NCBI GenBank assembly: GCA_010093705.1 | Contig: MU006089.1 | Span: forward strand, 1,180,455-1,244,454 | From: Patellaria atrata CBS 101060 | Lineage: Eukaryota | Length of the DNA: 64,000 nucleotides | Direction: 5' to 3' | In this document: positions 13,518-60,790 of the stretch, in pieces | How positions within the stretch are numbered: the first letter of the stretch is position 1 | Layout of the letters: the number at the start of each line of letters is the position of its first letter | Notes under the pieces: generated by a model | The model's database searches: none | Told to the model about the DNA's origin: nothing | The model's input: the letters and a program-made list of their open reading frames with translations, nothing else | Made by a program: the position numbers and the translations under genes

Positions 13518-13617
13518 NNNNNNNNNNNNNNNNNNNNNNNNNNNNNNNNNNNNNNNNNNNNNNNNNNNNNNNNNNNNNNNNNNNNNNNNNNNNNNNNNNN
13601 NNNNNNNNNNNNNNNNN
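13518..13617. other. Assembly gap (100 N)
   Basis: Run of exactly 100 N, typical of a placeholder gap of unknown true size. Confidence 0.99.
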
Positions 13618-30294: not shown

Positions 30295-33200
30295 ATGGGC
30301 TTCCTCGCGCAGACATGGACGCTCACGCGCAAAAATCTGATGATAGTTCTTGTTCGCCATTGGTTCTACACGTCTATAAGAGCGCTATGGGCTCCTATAA
30401 TCTTCGTTAGTCCCCTGACATTGTTTCTGAGCCTTTAGGTTGGTACCGGTATGCTAATGACGAGACCAGATGTTCTTTATCTCTTATGCGAAGAACCTAT
30501 TTGTTCCTCCTGCCAATTTTGGTATTGGCGAGCCAACATCCATAAGGTCATTTGGAAATGCGCTGGGTGCTTCACGACGGAGCACCGTTGTATTTGTGAA
30601 CAATCGGAATACTGGCGGCGAGATCCAGGACTTGATCAACCAACTAGCGGAACCAGTGCGGACCGCTGGTAAAAGAGTAGAAATTGTCGAAAGTGAGGAT
30701 GCTCTGCTCACTATATGTAAAAGTTCGCTGAGAGGGGTTTCTCCATGCTACGGCGCGGCAAGCTTTCTCTCCTCCCCCAGTGAAGGGGAAGGGGGGATCT
30801 GGAACTATACTCTTCGAGCAGACGGTAGTCTGGGTACGAGTGTCTACGTCGACCAGGAGGATAACGATCTACAAGTCTATCTGATTCCATTTCAACATGC
30901 TATAGACTCAGCAATTGCATCTCGCAACAACACTTCTAGCTCTAGTTATGTCGAAGAGTACCCCTTCACTAATAGATCACCTAAAGAACGCCAGGATAAC
31001 ATACGTCGTCTATACATGGGCACACTCATCGATATCTTGGCAGTGGCCTTCTTCATTGGCGTAGTTGGGGTCACCTACCAACTCACAGGGCATATGGCTA
31101 CTGAACGAGAGCTTGGTATGTCTCAATTGATCGAGGCTATGACACCCAATAAACATGTCTGGCAGACGCAAGCTGCAAGACTAATCGCGAACCACCTCGC
31201 TTTCGATATCATCTATTTACCAGGCTGGATCATCATGTCACTCATTGTTAGGGGTTTGGTTTTCCCTCATACTTCCGTCGCCATCATTCTCATATATTTT
31301 GTACTTAGTGGCCTTGCACTTTCAAGTTTCTCCATTCTCGGCGGTGCTTTGTTTCATAAGGCCCAGCTTTCTGGTATCACTTTAGTCATTGCTACTATCC
31401 TACTCGCTATCATTGCTCAGGTCACAGGAGCATCCAGTTCGGGTGCGGTTGCAGTCATGTCCTTGCTTTTTCCACCAATGAATTACGTCTTTTTTATCAT
31501 ATTCTGTGCCCGGTGGGAAAGAAAGAATATGGGCGCTAATCTGGTTGAGGGTGCCCCAGAAAGTCCATGGCAGCTCCCTGGTATTACATTGTGGGTATTC
31601 ACGATCATCCAAATATTCCTCTTTCCGGTTCTAGGTGCTCTTGTTGAACGAACGTTGTACGGGACTGGGACAAGCTCTCGAAGTCTATCCTCTGTCGCAC
31701 CCTCAAGCACTGAATCCGTCAGATTGACTAATTTCTCGAAACACTACGTCCCGGGTTGGTGGTCGCAAAAGATAGGTCCGCTCTTTGGTCGTGAAAGGAA
31801 AGAAACAGTACTCGCGGTGAATGAGCTGTCATTCTCTGCGTTAAGAGGTCAGATTTTAGTACTCCTCGGAGCTAATGGTAGTGGCAAATCTACTACCTTA
31901 GACGGCATTTCAGGCTTAAACAAGATTACTAGTGGTTCTATTGATATTGATGGAACTGGTGGATTAGGTCTTTGCCCGCAAAAGAACGTTTTGTGGGACG
32001 ATCTCACGGTCTTCGAGCATGTGCAGATCTTCAATCGCCTCAAATCCACAGGAAAACGAGACTCTAAGGACGAGATTAAAACCTTGATTCGTCATTGTGA
32101 CCTAGAACTGAAGACTTCAGCTAAGTCAGGCACCTTGTCTGGCGGTCAAAAGCGAAAACTCCAACTTGCAATGATGTTCACTGGAGGTAGTCGAGTGTGC
32201 TGTGTCGATGAGGTATCTTCAGGTTTAGATCCGTTATCTCGCAGGAAGATTTGGGATATTCTGCTTGCTGAACGGGGTGTTCGTACTTTGTTGCTAACAA
32301 CGCATTTCTTGGATGAGGCGGATATCCTTTCCGATCAAATTGTCATACTGTCAAAAGGTAGACTCAAGGCTGAAGGATCCGCAGTCGAACTGAAACATAC
32401 TCATGGCGGCGGTTATCGAGTACATTTATACCATGATCAGTCAAGAAAGCACATATCTGGTCTGTCCAACTACCCTCATAAGGCTTTCTTCGATCAAATC
32501 GTCTATCAATTGGTAGATTCTGCGGAAGCGTCGCGTTTCATCCTCAAACTTGAGGAAGCAGGCGTTCGTGATTACCAGGTTAATGGTCCAACTATTGAAG
32601 ATGTTTTCCTAAAGCTTGCGGAGGAAATCAAGGAAGAGCGTGAGGTATCTAAAAAGACCGGCACTATCGTTCTTTCTTCAGGCAACGAAAAGATCGTAGA
32701 TGCAGAACGTACGATCTCGAAGATGTCATCCCAAGAGGATATCCCACACCATGAAACCGGATTATCTACAGGTAAAGGAACAGGGATGCTTCAACAAACC
32801 TGGATACTTTTCAGAAAGCGTATAACGATTCTGCGGCGCAATAACTTACCATATTTTGCAGCCTTCATTATACCTGTCATTGCAGCTGGACTTGTCACCT
32901 TCTTCATCAAGGGCTTCAATGGTATCACCTGTGATCCACGTGGGTCGACAAATAACCCAGACTTCAGATCTTTTCAATTATTTGGTTCAGAAAGGGAACT
33001 TGTAATCCCTATTGGGCCTCCAGATCGAGTGTCACCGGGAGACCTTGCAGAGCAATTCCAAATAGATGAAGGCGTATTCCGTGTTGTTGATACCATTGAC
33101 GACTTTACCGAATATGTTCGTACTAATTATAGGAATGTCACCCCCGGTGGATTTTTCCTAAGGAACGGTGCTCCTACTTTCGCCTATAAAGCAAACGAAG

Positions 33201-35339
33201 AGGTCTTCTATACTGTTTTCGCACAGAACATGCTCAATAATGCGCTTTACAACACCACTATTTCGACGCAGTTCCAAGAATTCGCTGTACCATTTGCCCC
33301 AGATGCAGGCAAAACTTTACAGATGATTCTTTACTTTGGTCTTGCTATGTGTGCGTTTCCTGGATTCTTTGCATTATACCCAACCGTGGAGCGCTTGCGC
33401 CAGGTCCGTCCTTTGCATTATAGCAACGGAATCAGAGCAGCGCCGCTTTGGCTTGCATATCTTTTATTCGACTTTGTTTTCGTCCTCGCTATAAGTGCCT
33501 TAACCGTCATTATCTTTGTAGCGGTAAGTGGAACAATAGAATACTACTCGTTCGAGGCTAATATGTGCTAGGTTTCAAGCGTCTGGTACTACCCAGGCTA
33601 TCTCTTCGTCGTATTTTTCCTATATGGGCTTGCATCCATCCTTCTAGTCTATGTGGTTTCTTTGTTCTCTAGATCACAACTAGCGGCATTCGCTGTTGCT
33701 GCTGGTGGCCAGGCCAGCTTATTCCTTTTATACTTCATTGCGTGAGTCTCCAGATGTCGTGAATCTGCAATTCTCTCTAACTCAGCATAGATATATGTGC
33801 ATAATCACATATGCACCGACAGATGAGATTGACAACTATGTCACCATCGCGCATTTCACGATTGCGCTTATCACGCCGGCAGGGAATCTCCTACGAGCGC
33901 TACTCTTAACCTTGAATGAGTTCTCTTTGCTCTGCCGTGACACGCAAATTGCATCATACCCAGGTGCAATTAAAGTATACGGTGGACCAATAGTTTACCT
34001 CATTGTGCAGTCCTTCCTCCTCTTCGGAGTCCTTGTGTGGTGGGATAGCGGTTACAAACCGCCGTTCCTTACCCGAACGAAGCATCGCGAAGAACACGTT
34101 GAGGAGTTCGATATCAGCGACCCTGATATTCTCGCAGAGACCCGTCGCGTCAGAGATTCCGACGACGGTCTTCGTGCACTTCATCTCACCAAATCCTTTG
34201 GCAGCAATCCCGCAGTCCAAAATATCAGCTTTGGGGTTCGTGCTGGAGAAGTATTCGCTCTTCTCGGTCCCAACGGAGCCGGAAAATCCACTACAATCTC
34301 AGTCATCCGTGGCGACATTCGCCCATCGTCTAACGGCGGCGATGTACTCATCGAAGGAAAATCTATTCTCAAACGACGAGCGGCAGCCCGCCAATCCCTC
34401 GGCGTATGCCCACAGTTTGACGCAATGGACACCATGACTGTTCTCGAGCACCTTCGCTTCTACGCACGCGCCCGCGGCGTACCAGACGTCGAACATAACG
34501 TCTCCGCCGTGGTGCAAGCAGTAGGACTGGAGCCATTCAAAGATCGCATGGCAGCCGCTCTCTCCGGTGGAAACAAGCGAAAACTGAGTCTCGGTATTGC
34601 ACTCATGGGCAATCCATCCGTTCTTCTACTCGACGAACCATCCTCGGGTATGGATGCCGCGGCGAAACGAGTCATGTGGCGGACGTTATCGTCTCTTACG
34701 AGTGGTAGGAGTCTGTTGATCACGACCCATTCCATGGAAGAAGCGGATGCGTTAGCAGACCGTGCGGGTATCATGGCGAAGAGGATGCTGGCTTTAGGCA
34801 CGTCAAATGCGCTGAGAAAGAAATATGGAGATGCGTGGCATGTGCACTTGGTGCATCGGACGGCACCACACACGTCTCTGGAGGACATGCAAACGATGAA
34901 GGCGTGGGTTGAGCGCAATATCCCTGGCGCTGTGGTCGAGGACCGTATGTTCCACGGGCAACTGCGATTTAAAGTCCCCACATCAGGGTTTGTTGTGGAC
35001 GAGAAGACAGCTACCTCTAGCACCACGGAATCATCAAAGTCGGTTTCAACCCCTGAACAGCTGGAAGTCATCGAACAGCATAAGGCACAGACAGGTATCG
35101 CCTCACTCTTTACGCTGTTAGAGACGCATAAGGATGAGCTTGGGTGCGAGTATTATTCCGTGTCGCAGACGACACTGGATCAGGTCTTCCTGACTATTGT
35201 GGGAAAGCATAATATCGAAGAGGAGAACGCGAGGGAGGAGAAACGGGAGGGGAAAGGGTGGATGAGTAGATTTACGAAAAAGGGAATTGAAGGGCTATCA
35301 TGGTTTCATTCAAAACGGGGAATGGGGAGAAGAAGATAG
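30295..35339 (+). CDS. Full-size ABCA-subfamily ABC transporter (4 exons)
   Basis: 'QTWTLTRKN' start; NBD1 GANGSGKST/LSGGQKRKL/DEVSSGLD; NBD2 GPNGAGKST/GVCPQFD/LSGGNKRKL/LDEPSSGMD; 'QTTLDQVF'. Introns 30406-30469, 33524-33571, 33742-33790. Confidence 0.95.
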
Positions 35340-35599
35340 GAGCTGTTATGTAAATAGCTTGAATGTGCGGTGTGGATCATAGAAAGGGGGGGATTTCTTC
35401 CGTACGTCGGTTAAGATGCAACGGAGCGGAACTGAGGATATGTAGATATCTATGCGATAGACGATAATTTCTTTTCTTCTAACTGCTATACTTATTTCCT
35501 TTCCTCTCTCTTCTATGTTTCCATCATCGGTTTGGCCCAATATATGCGTACAAGCACCGAAAATCAACCCTCCCCGACCCGCTCCAACCAACTAATCGG

Positions 35600-35700
35600 C
35601 ACCAAATGGTCGAGTTGGTTAAGGCGCGAGATTCGGGCACTCCAGACGTTCTACGATCAAATACCATTCTCTATATGCAAGTGTCCGAATGGGATCTAGT
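35600..35700 (+). pseudogene. Degenerate tRNA-like sequence (Leu/Ser-type D-arm), left arm of the foldback
   Basis: TGGTCGAGTTGGTTAAGGCG is a D-arm/A-box variant and ATGCAAGTGTCCGAAT resembles a decayed T-arm/B-box. No acceptor-stem pairing. Confidence 0.45.
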
Positions 35701-35936
35701 CTCCCTTCATTTGCCCAACTTCCACACAACCGACCGTTCTATCTCCCTCGTAGAAACGTGCAATACCAACGCTACTACAGTAAAACCTCCGCGAGGTCCT
35801 CACCCAACTGTTAGAACTAGAACTACAGACCTTACTTTTAGGCCACAAACTCTCTCCGCAAACCTCGCAATCTCCACCGGAGATCGTATTGCCGAGTCGG
35901 GACAGAATCCATCAGCGATGACGCGAAGGGATCTCC

Positions 35937-36037
35937 CGCCAAACCCAATCTGCACACCTGCATACATAGAACAGACGTTTATCGTAGAACGTCTGGAGAC
36001 CCCAAATCTAACGCCTTAACCACTCGGCCATTTGGTG
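35937..36037 (-). pseudogene. Degenerate intron-containing tRNA-like sequence, right arm of the foldback
   Basis: CACCAAA/TTTGGCG acceptor (6 of 7 pairs); perfect A-box TGGCCGAGTGG plus TTAAGGCG; TAGA/TCTA anticodon stem interrupted by a ~30-nt insert with its own 8-bp hairpin. T-arm/B-box is destroyed. Confidence 0.55.
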
Positions 36038-36506
36038 CTGATTGGTTGGTTTACCGGCTTTACTGGAGGATGGATTTGTGTCTGGGGCTTTGATTTTCTT
36101 TCTTTTTTTTCCCCGGTTTTTGGTGCCTTTTGATTTTATTTTATTTTTTGAAGGGGAGGAGATGGGGTTTTTAGCAGTATCGTGATGGGTACGGCGTGTA
36201 TTGGAAATTTGTCGTGATAGTGGCGTGTTTGGACTTGGTGTTGTCGTCAGTTAATACTGGCAGACTTCGGGGCTTTCTTACGTCCTAAGGGAGGACTGTA
36301 GGCTTTAGGTAGGAAGATCTGTAATTTTGTGCGATATTTCAAGGCAAAACGAAATACTTGGTCGAATCTATTGTATTTGCATCTTCAAAGATCCTCATTT
36401 CAAGTACGAAAAGAGCATACTTTACGCTATGGTAACCTACAAGACTCTACATCAGGCCTAGTAAGAAGCCGCAGAAGAATATCTGGATATATATCTCCCT
36501 CCACCC

Positions 36507-37947
36507 CTAAGAGAGCGGGACCATCAAACGATCAACATCCGGCCCCCAACCTCCACTCGCCGAGATCCTAATCTCATTATTCCCCTCCCTCAAATCCGCA
36601 TGCAAGACGCTAGCAATAGGCGTATTCCCATCCGGGCTCGGCACGAACGCGACCCTCTTCGTCTGCCCGTTGACCGAGACATCTGCATACCGCTCCGCAC
36701 TGTTCCCATTGGCGTAATTGATACGGATGGTAGATCGAGTGGCGGCGGAGCTCGAAACCTGCGCAAAGACGGCGGTGCCGGTCTGATCGCCGCCGATGTA
36801 TCCCGCGGCCTTCTTGCCGGAGCACTTCTCGCAGTTGATCGAGCGCGCGCCGTTTGAGAGCGTGGCTGACTCGCCCTCGTATGTCGTCTCGGACGGTCCG
36901 GCCGCCCAGGTCCCCTTGGCTACGTCGAGTTGCCAGTTCACGTAGTTCTTCATCGAGGCTGTGGTGCCTGAGATGCTGAGGGGGAGCCAGACGTAGGTGC
37001 TGCGCATGAGGTTGCCGCTGTGCCAGCGGTCGCCCATGTAGATGATTGTGTCGCCTACCGGGAGGACGAAGGTTGTTTGTGACGAGTAGGTCTTGCTGCC
37101 GCTGTCTGCGAAGGTCTTCCAGCCGGACCAAGGGCCAGACATGGAGGTTGAGGTGCTGTAGATGTTGTCATTGGGGTCCCAACCGGACAGTTTGGAGGTG
37201 AACATGAAATAGACGCCGTTCTTCTTGACTACGGCGGGCGCTTCGTACTTTTCGTTCCAGCGGTAGGTCTCGGATGCGATGGTTAGATAGTCTGCGGAAA
37301 GCTTCATGATGCGAAGGCCATTCTCACGCTGGTATACCTGTTAACTAGAGGACATAAAGGAAGATAGTTGCACACATACATCTTCACTGAGCAAGTAGCC
37401 CGTACCATCATCATCTTTGAATAACCCCATGTCTCTCGACTGGTGACCATTTGGTCGAAAGCCCCCTCTATAAGAATAGCTTCCGCACACGGAGCTTGAC
37501 GTGGCAACACCCGTTTTTGCATCCTTGTAGTCCGAACTGTCGATGTGCATCCACATAACATACTGCTTGGTGTTGGAGTTGTATATGACCTTCGGACGTT
37601 CTACGACCCGGCTAGGTCCTAGATCTCCAGATCCTTGACGCGAAAGTAGTGCGCCGACATACGTCCATTCGATCAGATTGGTGGAGGAGTAGCAGTTAAT
37701 GTTATGGAAAGCAGATCCCTCTGTCTTGTCCTCTCCAATCATATACCAGGTGTTGTCGACTTTGATGATGCCAGCGCCATGAGCTTGGACGTGCTTGCCG
37801 TTAGACTGGACAATTCGTCAGTAGCGATCTGCGATATGATCATTTCTGACTTACCGCAGTCCATGTAGCCCCAGAAACGATTTGGAGGGAAGCTGTAGCC
37901 GTCGCTGCCAGGAGCGCAAGGCAGGCACCACCTAGAGAAGTCCGCAT
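36507..37947 (-). CDS. Secreted GH43 hydrolase with C-terminal CBM35 (exo-beta-1,3-galactanase-like)
   Basis: Signal peptide MRTSLGGACLALLAATATA; 'HVQAHGAGI', 'VVERPKVIYN', 'SRDMGLFKDDDG', 'EAPA', 'YMGDRW', 'YVWLP'; CBM 'TYEGESA..CSGKKAAGYIGG..GPDVDRL'. Two short introns. Confidence 0.92.
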
Positions 37948-59094: not shown

Positions 59095-59360
59095 TAGAGG
59101 ATCGGAATACCCCCCTTTTTTGTTGTCGTTGTTGTATAGTGCTATCCTCCCGACCCTCTGTGTATGAGGGAGATGTAGAGGGAGTCTTTATGCTGTATCC
59201 GAGGGCGGACATCTGTTGGCGTTTGGCCTACATGGAGCTCTGCGAGTGGTATCCATGGGTGATATCACATCGTTGGCCCTGAGTCGCTCCATGGCATAGG
59301 AGCGGTGTGTATTGTATATAGGGTATATGGATTTATAAGATTTATCTTGTCGCATCTCAC

Positions 59361-60790
59361 TCACACCTTGGCCAACTCGACCCTCTGCTCCGTCGTCCTT
59401 CCCAACCCTTCCTTCGCGTAAAAGTCCATCGGATATACCTCCTCGACCCCCTTATTCCCATCCATCCATCCCGCCTCTCTGACACCTAATGTCACGAGCG
59501 CCTCATACGGACTCAGTAGCGGCCGCTCGAATGCATATCCCCAGTCTATGCTCAACCGCGGACACGCGATCTGCACCCACGCCTCGACGTCGGCCATCAT
59601 GGCGAGTTTCCCGGGGAAGATTTCCGACAGGAGGACGTTGACGACCGGGATGCCGCGCTCGGCGAGCAGGTTCTCGATCAGCGTCATTGTGTGCGGGTTC
59701 CCCTGGCGTCCGAGGCTCCCGAGTATAATGCCCCATTTCCTCGCGTGGCGGGCCAGCATGACGGCGGCGCTGCGGAGGCGGTAGAGTTCACCGTGGTCGT
59801 AGGTTTCGTGCGTAAGGCGGCGCGAGTAAGGGTCGTAGCGATAGGCGGGGAGGGAGGGGTTGTGGATCATGGCGCTTTCGAGATGGAAGCGGCCGTCGCC
59901 GAGGTAGAGGATCAGGTCTGCGGCTGTGTTGTCTTTTTCATCCTTGGAAAGACGCGGAGAGGTGCAGCCGAGAATTTCGCCTTTGCTGAGCGGTGTCGAT
60001 TGGGGGATCATGATGTTGAAGCCTGCGTTTCGGAGAGCCGGGGCGGTGTTGTGGATTGTGCTGTTGAATTGGATCGTTCCTACCATCGCGATGGTCTTGC
60101 CGAGCTGGAAGTTGCGAGTGAGGGTCTGCAGGAGATGAGTTGTGTCGATTGAGATGGCGACGAAGATGTAGAGGGTTGCGATTTTGGTTGTCGAGACGGG
60201 GATTAGACAGCTGTGTGCGTAATGGATCAACAGGTCGCATCCCAGAGCCCGGGCGGTGAAATCGTCGATACAACAGGCACCGTAGGTGACATCTCCCATT
60301 ATCAGCGTCTCGGTGTCTGGACAGAACCGAGTGATGATGTCTGATATAGTCGTGGCGAACAGTAGCAGGCCCTCGGGGAACTGTAACGCGACCTTCTTCG
60401 CCCCTGAACTCCGCACGCGGTGTATGGTCTTATGTAACTCAAATGAGTAATTTGAGGGAAGTAGAGCAATGGCTGTATTGATATCAGGGTCTGAGAGGAT
60501 AGAATTGGGAATATTGTGCAAGGCACGAGCAGTCCTCCGAGGTTGTGTAACTAATCATGGCCCTGTCAGAGTTATTCAAGTGATATTGAGAAGTTTCAGA
60601 GCGAGTGCGGACCTTGTATAGCTCCACTCTCCTCGATATTCACATTGGGATCGTTTTGGGAGGACTTTTCTGCTGCTGCCCGCCGTCCTACGAATCTCTT
60701 CTTTGGAATCTTAGGAACTGTGGTGGCATCTCCATCTATATCGGTGGGGATATCGAAGCCTAGATTGGTTGGAAGTCTGTCTTCTTCCAT
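59361..60790 (-). CDS. DPH1: Diphthamide biosynthesis protein 1 (2 exons)
   Basis: 'PKKRFVGRR', '[12 protein letters not shown]', 'VALQFPEGL', '[12 protein letters not shown]', 'GEILGCTSP', 'GDGRFHLES', '[12 protein letters not shown]', 'YPMDFY'. Confidence 0.96.

Follow-up and report, generated by a model that had tools for sequence, protein, structure and literature searches.

The intergenic DNA between two convergent genes of Patellaria atrata CBS 101060 contains a 466-bp inverted repeat (35586-36051) whose arms resemble tRNA genes. The question raised by this locus is whether the repeat is a hairpin locus transcribed by RNA polymerase III (Pol III) and feeding small RNAs, a mobile element with tRNA-derived ends, or debris left by the death and copying of a tRNA gene. 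The original prediction entertained the first two. We examined the element within the window, by which we mean the whole 64,000-nt stretch analysed, and all coordinates refer to it.

The inverted repeat and its setting

The element was placed by the original prediction between convergent ABCA and GH43 genes, and the stop codons (35337-35339 on the plus strand and 36507-36509 on the minus strand) confirm this position, with the inverted repeat lying inside an intergenic spacer of 1167 bp. In its last exon, the ABCA gene matches the ATP-binding cassette sub-family A protein of Patellaria atrata CBS 101060 at 100% identity, in tblastn as well, and the next-best match in the protein set is 67% identical. 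The features of the locus are as follows.

30295-35339, plus strand: ABCA-type ABC transporter, stop at 35337-35339, ending 246 nt before the element
35586-35693, plus strand: left arm, a partial and more degraded copy with a 14-nt leader and the 5' ~94 nt of a tRNA-like body
35640-35657, plus strand: 18-nt block, with a second copy at 35981-35998 on the minus strand
35694-35943, no strand: spacer of 250 bp, unlike either arm, without internal palindrome and with no Rfam family above noise
35944-36051, minus strand: right arm, the better-kept copy, sharing 88 of 109 columns with the left arm
36507-37817, minus strand: 3' part of a GH43 + CBM35 glycoside hydrolase, stop at 36507-36509, 455 nt beyond the element

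Repeat detection paired 35586-35615 with 36022-36051 (30 nt, 90% identity) and 35616-35693 with 35945-36022 (78 nt, 77%), and self-BLAST aligned 35586-35693 to 36051-35944 over 109 columns at 80.7% identity (E 1e-21). In a global alignment of the arms, 88 of the 109 columns are identical and the remainder comprise 19 substitutions and 2 gap columns. Taken in full, this repeat lies well outside what chance would give. The arms had been drawn somewhat longer, with 35586-~35708 as the reverse complement of ~35925-36051. That description holds as far as 35693 and 35944; past these positions the arms share a single 7-mer, and 434 of 500 shuffles score as well. Since the extension rests on this chance-level 7-mer, the supported unit is ~108 bp and not ~123 bp. 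No mutual similarity was found between the two halves of the spacer. The finer features reported for the arms were recovered. Within the outer ~41 columns, 37 are identical and the rest are three substitutions and one indel, all three substitutions being transitions that give G-U pairs in a plus-strand hairpin, and the 18-nt block is exact in both arms.

It is important to consider whether such a structure could be an assembly artefact, namely a chimeric foldback. A foldback built from the same reads would be near-identical, whereas these arms differ at 21 of 109 columns, indels included, and the artefact is thereby excluded in practice; the chance we leave to it is negligible. Nothing in favour of an artefact was found, and the sole assembly gap in the window, a run of 100 N at 13518-13617, is 22 kb distant.

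A tRNA origin, probably serine-type, for the arms

Judged by their sequence, both arms derive from a type-II, serine-like tRNA, with the clearest evidence coming from the minus-strand arm.

36012-36030, minus strand: exact 19-nt D-arm/A-box string, the one match in the window where 0.01 is expected (up to 3 mismatches allowed)
35607-35626, plus strand: degenerate D-arm/A-box string with one C>T change and one inserted T, leaving 2 mismatches in the A-box
35936-36037, minus strand: tRNA-Ser-like pseudogene body, 15.5 bits with RF00005, its blocks assigned by eye against tRNA-Ser from PMC10359600
35973-35994, minus strand: local hairpin of 7 bp with an 8-nt loop (MFE), lying in the extra segment and intact only in the right arm

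The A-box of the minus arm (36030-36020) is the sole exact consensus match in 64 kb, where the A-box corresponds to tRNA positions 8-19. When the minus arm was searched alone with the tRNA covariance model RF00005, it aligned end to end (36037-35936) at 15.5 bits against a gathering score of 29. The E value was 0.68 over 4227 families, which by division amounts to ~1.6e-4 for a single family named beforehand. Acceptor pairing is recovered at 6 of 7 positions, and the D-arm and the 5' strand of the anticodon stem are aligned; the 3' anticodon strand, variable region and T-arm are left out of the alignment. The covariance check proposed for the two units was thus only partly positive: the minus arm gave this sub-threshold score and the plus arm alone gave no match at E<=10.

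The pseudogene body opens with the 5' strand of the acceptor, followed by an intact D-arm and the 5' half of the anticodon stem. Next come the beginning of the variable arm, ~33 extra nt and a degenerate T region, and the body closes with the 3' strand of the acceptor and a G discriminator. A by-eye comparison with human tRNA-Ser-CGA, as given in PMC10359600, is colinear over 19/19 positions at positions 8-9 plus the D-arm, 4/5 in the 5' anticodon stem, 10/10 at the start of the variable arm and 5/5 in the 5' T-stem, after which come the acceptor complement and the G discriminator. The 19-nt D-arm string is common to the four human tRNA-Ser and to tRNA-Leu-TAA given there (PMC10359600). The serine assignment is a by-eye one against human tRNAs and not against the tRNA genes of this fungus.

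Thus, compared with the sequences in PMC10359600, the minus arm resembles eukaryotic cytosolic tRNA-Ser genes and pseudogenes in its D-arm string, acceptor pairing and G discriminator; it also matches the 5' T-stem of tRNA-Ser-CGA and the initial 10 nt of its variable arm, all in the right order. Unlike tRNA-Ser genes, the arms are without an anticodon loop, 3' anticodon stem, T-loop and 3' T-stem and carry ~33 extra nt; the Rfam score lies below gathering, and the second copy stops before the 3' acceptor strand. The two departures from tRNA-Ser can be located in the minus arm, where 2 nt replace the anticodon loop and 3' stem and the ~33 extra nt precede the T region, and both are also present, more worn, in the plus arm. 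A proline anticodon that can be read from the loop in both arms was rejected, being better explained, by eye, as the start of the serine variable arm moved next to the stem by the shared deletion.

Together these results bear out the view of the arms as decayed, inward-facing, tRNA-derived units, through the exact D-arm string, the A-box and the 15.5 bits of RF00005 on the minus arm. The D-arm/A-box string was said to open each arm; it is exact in the minus arm and degenerate in the plus arm, and it starts 21 nt inside the arms and not at their ends.

Loss of tRNA gene and Pol III promoter features

One reading of such arms is that one or both are working tRNA or tRNA-like genes of an unusual, intron-bearing kind. 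The intact A-box, the 6/7 acceptor pairs and the G discriminator of the minus arm fit this reading, as does a possible anticodon-stem pair (35628/35671) that, by eye, is altered on both sides between the arms. We nevertheless regard it as highly improbable, since RF00005 is below gathering in one arm and absent in the other, ARAGORN run with introns finds nothing, a T-arm cannot be drawn, the units fold like shuffles and RNAalifold finds no compensatory pairs. Specifically, ARAGORN at default settings, with and without introns, returned 0 tRNAs in the window, Rfam at gathering thresholds returned 0 hits in the whole window, and RF00005 found no tRNA match at E<=10 in the 1101-nt region. Neither arm contains an anticodon 3' stem or a T-arm. 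Folded singly, the units gave z-scores of -0.41, -0.02, -1.23 and -1.41, and RNAalifold on the two units (-11.7 kcal/mol) showed 0/26 compensatory pairs.

Several weaker candidates were examined and set aside. ARAGORN relaxed to 80% with introns made 3 calls in 901 nt, with introns of 88-242 nt; at this setting, 70 pieces taken elsewhere in the window gave a mean of 2.04 calls (range 0-4) per 901 nt, so that these calls are noise. A hand-drawn cloverleaf with a ~30-nt intron, built around the two-sided change at 35628/35671, and a helix of 35631-35635 with 35686-35690 that seemed to change on both sides were both abandoned as over-readings, given the RNAalifold result and the shuffle-like folding. 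An A-box-like site in the spacer (35889-35899, 2 mismatches) was discounted because 2.3 such sites per 641 nt are background and the spacer is unlike the arms. Likewise, a likeness of 35911-36019 (minus strand) to the C/D snoRNA Afu_190 scored 15.4 bits against a gathering score of 35 (E 2.4), with the D box aligned and the C box not, and other weak C/D snoRNA matches (Afu_190, 11.7 bits; snoR44_J54, 13.4 bits) were far below gathering with the C box unaligned.

In a type-2 Pol III promoter, the B-box lies 30-90 nt downstream of the A-box and is the main anchor for TFIIIC. In 35560-36200, no match to the B-box consensus with <=2 mismatches was present on either strand, and matches with 3 mismatches numbered 13 in 641 nt, equal to the window-wide rate of 18.2 per kb. 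The earlier remark that no intact B-box is visible therefore stands, the best matches having 3 mismatches and being background. The T-runs relevant to termination are listed below.

35836-35839, plus strand: within the hairpin loop, the first T4 run after the plus unit
35782-35785, minus strand: within the hairpin loop, the first T4 run after the minus unit
36094-36172, plus strand: cluster of T-runs from T4 to T8, 43 nt beyond the right arm, with T8 at 36103-36110

The T-runs noted after the element at ~36094-36150 are thus present, within a cluster spanning 36094-36172. The proposal that the duplicated tRNA sequence supplies a Pol III promoter was not upheld: the A-box is intact only in the minus arm, the B-box is at background, and T4 runs fall inside the hairpin on both strands. 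All that tRNA function or a type-2 Pol III promoter would require is lost.

Hairpin folding and the pattern of substitutions

We next consider the element as a candidate hairpin small-RNA locus, in which the ~108-bp imperfect stem would be cut by Dicer into siRNA- or milRNA-like RNAs after transcription by one of two routes, Pol III using the surviving A-box or Pol II reading through from ABCA or GH43. The idea is legitimate because, according to PMC3547838, most abundant Neurospora milRNAs are Pol III products and milR-4 is tRNA-linked, sitting between two tRNA-Ala genes and requiring RNase Z; Pol III milRNAs and the tRNA-containing milR-4 precursor thus provide a precedent. Locally, both strands fold far better than shuffles, T-runs lie past the hairpin on the plus strand, and the element is within reach of two convergent transcription units, with ABCA 246 nt upstream. 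Nonetheless, we consider this reading improbable.

Folding of 35586-36051 gave -187.2 kcal/mol (z -15.0) and -224.0 kcal/mol (z -13.9) for the two strands, and on each strand 0/100 shuffles were as good. Every inverted repeat must fold, so that these z-scores follow trivially from the repeat and add nothing beyond it. The reading is further weakened by the lack of a B-box match above background in 35560-36200, by the T4 runs in the loop on both strands, by the lack of any excess of stem-preserving changes (3 versus 6 transitions, and 10 transversions), and by an 18-nt block that is no longer than chance. The suggestion of a Dicer-substrate hairpin therefore survives as to its strong folding potential (z -15.0 and -13.9), and its promoter and selection for the stem are unsupported.

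The substitutions between the arms were analysed for signs of constraint. Of the transitions, 3 give G-U pairs on the plus strand and 6 on the minus strand (binomial p 0.51), and 9 transitions compare with 10 transversions. The head is identical at 37/41 columns and the rest at 51/68 (Fisher p 0.078); at that p value, the slightly better preservation of the head may faintly reflect constraint on the A-box. An exact run of >=18 arises in 5976/20000 permutations of the match and mismatch columns. The 18-nt block, the G-U pattern and the difference in identity between head and body are thus all at chance level. Selection for the stem or for a mature small RNA, which the exact block and the G-U substitutions had been taken to suggest, finds no support in the run-length permutations (5976/20000) or in the changes themselves (3 versus 6 transitions, 10 transversions). 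A statistical sign of constraint on the arms is absent, and nothing departs from the neutral decay of an 81%-identical repeat. Repeat-induced point mutation (RIP) is expected to leave transitions only. The 9 transitions and 10 transversions between the arms are unlike that transition-only pattern, and on such short pieces the RIP indices point neither way.

Like the present element, Neurospora crassa pri-milR-4 joins tRNA-related sequence to a hairpin, and there the Pol III route is established, with two intact tRNA-Ala genes co-transcribed with a separate hairpin and an RNase Z cut, as described in PMC3547838. In contrast, the stem at the present locus would consist of the dead tRNA copies themselves. 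Furthermore, a fungal re-analysis (PMC9757828) treats tRNA- or TE-linked hairpins as low-confidence.

A more specific version of the small-RNA reading is a hairpin RNA gene, young in function, whose stem would be diced into small RNAs, with transcription by read-through from ABCA or GH43 or from the surviving A-box. Some of these RNAs would come from the 18-nt block, which can pair with the GH43 mRNA at 37590-37607 at 15/18 positions plus one G-U. We consider this version very improbable; were it true, a dead tRNA gene would have been recycled into a cis-acting silencing locus in a Dothideomycete. As a separate observation, the plus strand of the GH43 coding region at 37590-37607 matches the 18-nt block at 15/18 positions, 12 nt of them exact, a likeness at chance level (BLAST E 5.5, nhmmer E 1).

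If small RNAs did come from the element, it would show a dead tRNA gene giving rise, after duplication, to a hairpin RNA locus, a case relevant to the tRNA/Pol III ancestry that has been proposed for fungal milRNAs.

Evidence for and against a mobile origin

The element might instead be the relic of a non-autonomous mobile element, either a 466-bp foldback or MITE-like element with tRNA-derived inverted repeats or two opposite, low-copy tRNA-Ser SINE insertions. Its size and non-coding nature fit, as do the inverted orientation of its terminal arms and a repeat unit that approximates a tRNA transcription unit plus a 14-nt leader. A 178-aa stop-free frame across the element (P0241) was rejected as a coding gene: it matched no Pfam family, and of 43 candidate homologues, restricted to lengths of 97-312, none reached E<=1e-3, a blank that carries no information on other copies of the element.

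Several lines of evidence argue against mobility. No k-mer >=4 is shared by the two flanks of the whole element, and for the units only one loosely placed, chance-level 6-mer was seen at the left one and nothing at the right one. The flank k-mers thus agree with the earlier statement that no target-site duplication is visible, for the element and for each unit. In the 64-kb window, no further copy was found at E<0.01, using BLAST with word size 7 and an nhmmer profile of the two arms. There is also no B-box above background, and the spacer halves lack mutual similarity. Retroposed copies, which are driven by LINEs, keep their 3' ends. The two units share their 5' parts and their similarity ends before the 3' end, which is the opposite of what retroposed copies show. 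On these grounds (no target-site duplication, no significant copy in 64 kb, and units alike in 5' and different in 3' parts), the proposed MITE/SINE dimer was not substantiated.

Low-copy tRNA-related SINEs of 140-493 bp exist in filamentous fungi, and the Aspergillus fumigatus element AfuSINE2 shows the usual Pol III promoter features, is flanked by 4-14-bp target-site duplications and carries a tail unrelated to tRNA (PMC5063351). The present element is like these SINEs in its tRNA-derived head with an A-box, small size, low copy number in 64 kb and gene-rich location, and unlike AfuSINE2 in having no target-site duplication, no B-box and no shared tail (PMC5063351). Because fungal tRNA SINEs are low-copy, which also speaks for the mobile reading, finding just one pair in 64 kb is compatible with a family. 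With MITEs and foldback elements the element shares its short, non-coding structure bounded by inverted repeats; unlike them, it has no target-site duplication, its arms are 81% alike and no further copies occur in 64 kb. Our literature search found no tRNA-derived foldback family and no described tRNA-derived foldback or hairpin locus in fungi, and among the matches listed there was none on P. atrata repeats.

One borderline match deserves mention. The segment 7895-7964 on the minus strand resembles the inner portion of the repeat unit (nhmmer 11.0 bits, E 0.012), a score reached by 0/60 block shuffles (maximum 7.8). In its core, 17/19 positions agree with the beginning of the inner segment that the arms share, and the remainder aligns poorly; by a rough count, the chance of a 19-mer match like this core is ~0.1. 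The segment may lie in an intron of a minus-strand gene. If the match is real, the unit would be dispersed, favouring a mobile origin. All told, we judge a mobile relic unlikely, though it is the likeliest of the alternatives.

Two sequence contexts are recorded here as side observations. The segment 7895-7964 (minus strand) begins right after GTAAGT. At 59360-59387 (minus strand), a 22/28 match to the variant D-arm of the plus arm, with 11 exact nt (nhmmer E 0.45), is followed by GTGAGT; a coding exon probably ends here, and the likeness is probably due to chance.

A probable tRNA-Ser pseudogene and its partial inverted copy

Debris such as tRNA pseudogenes and small inverted duplications is common between the genes of eukaryotes. 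Based on the results above, we favour, as the probable explanation, an inert relic consisting of a tRNA-Ser pseudogene and its partial inverted copy, drifting neutrally. Under this explanation, the minus-strand sequence at 36037-35936 would be what remains of a cytosolic serine-type (type II) tRNA gene that died there. The departures from tRNA-Ser are common to the two arms, which suggests that the unit was already dead, with its anticodon arm lost, before it was copied. Then ~108 bp, made up of 14 nt of upstream flank and the 5' ~94 nt of the body and ending just short of the 3' acceptor strand, would have been copied in inverted orientation 250 bp away. The second copy presumably arose through a DNA-level event such as template switching or break repair and not through transposition, and both copies would since have drifted apart to 81% identity. 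The hairpin potential would then be a by-product without a role.

As it stands, the element is of little import, and nothing here points to function. It does provide a worked example of how a striking hairpin z-score, G-U-only substitutions and an exact block can all arise from a neutral, 81%-identical inverted repeat.

Additional observations on the flanking region

The GH43/CBM35 protein has best relatives that are just 60-63% identical and patchily distributed, namely in Rhizoctonia (a basidiomycete), Aaosphaeria, Hypoxylon and Whalleya, followed by many actinobacterial proteins. The gene carries an in-frame stop at 37341-37343 (minus strand), which is crossed by tblastn alignments to two homologues (37805-36510), with ~12 extra residues on the side of the window. 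This stop is probably part of a short in-frame intron, and possibly the sign of a pseudogene. Additionally, pyrimidine-rich tracts lie on the plus strand on either side of the element (35467-35530 and 36089-36172), and a 21-nt T-rich unit is directly repeated at 36089-36109 and 36129-36149 on that strand.
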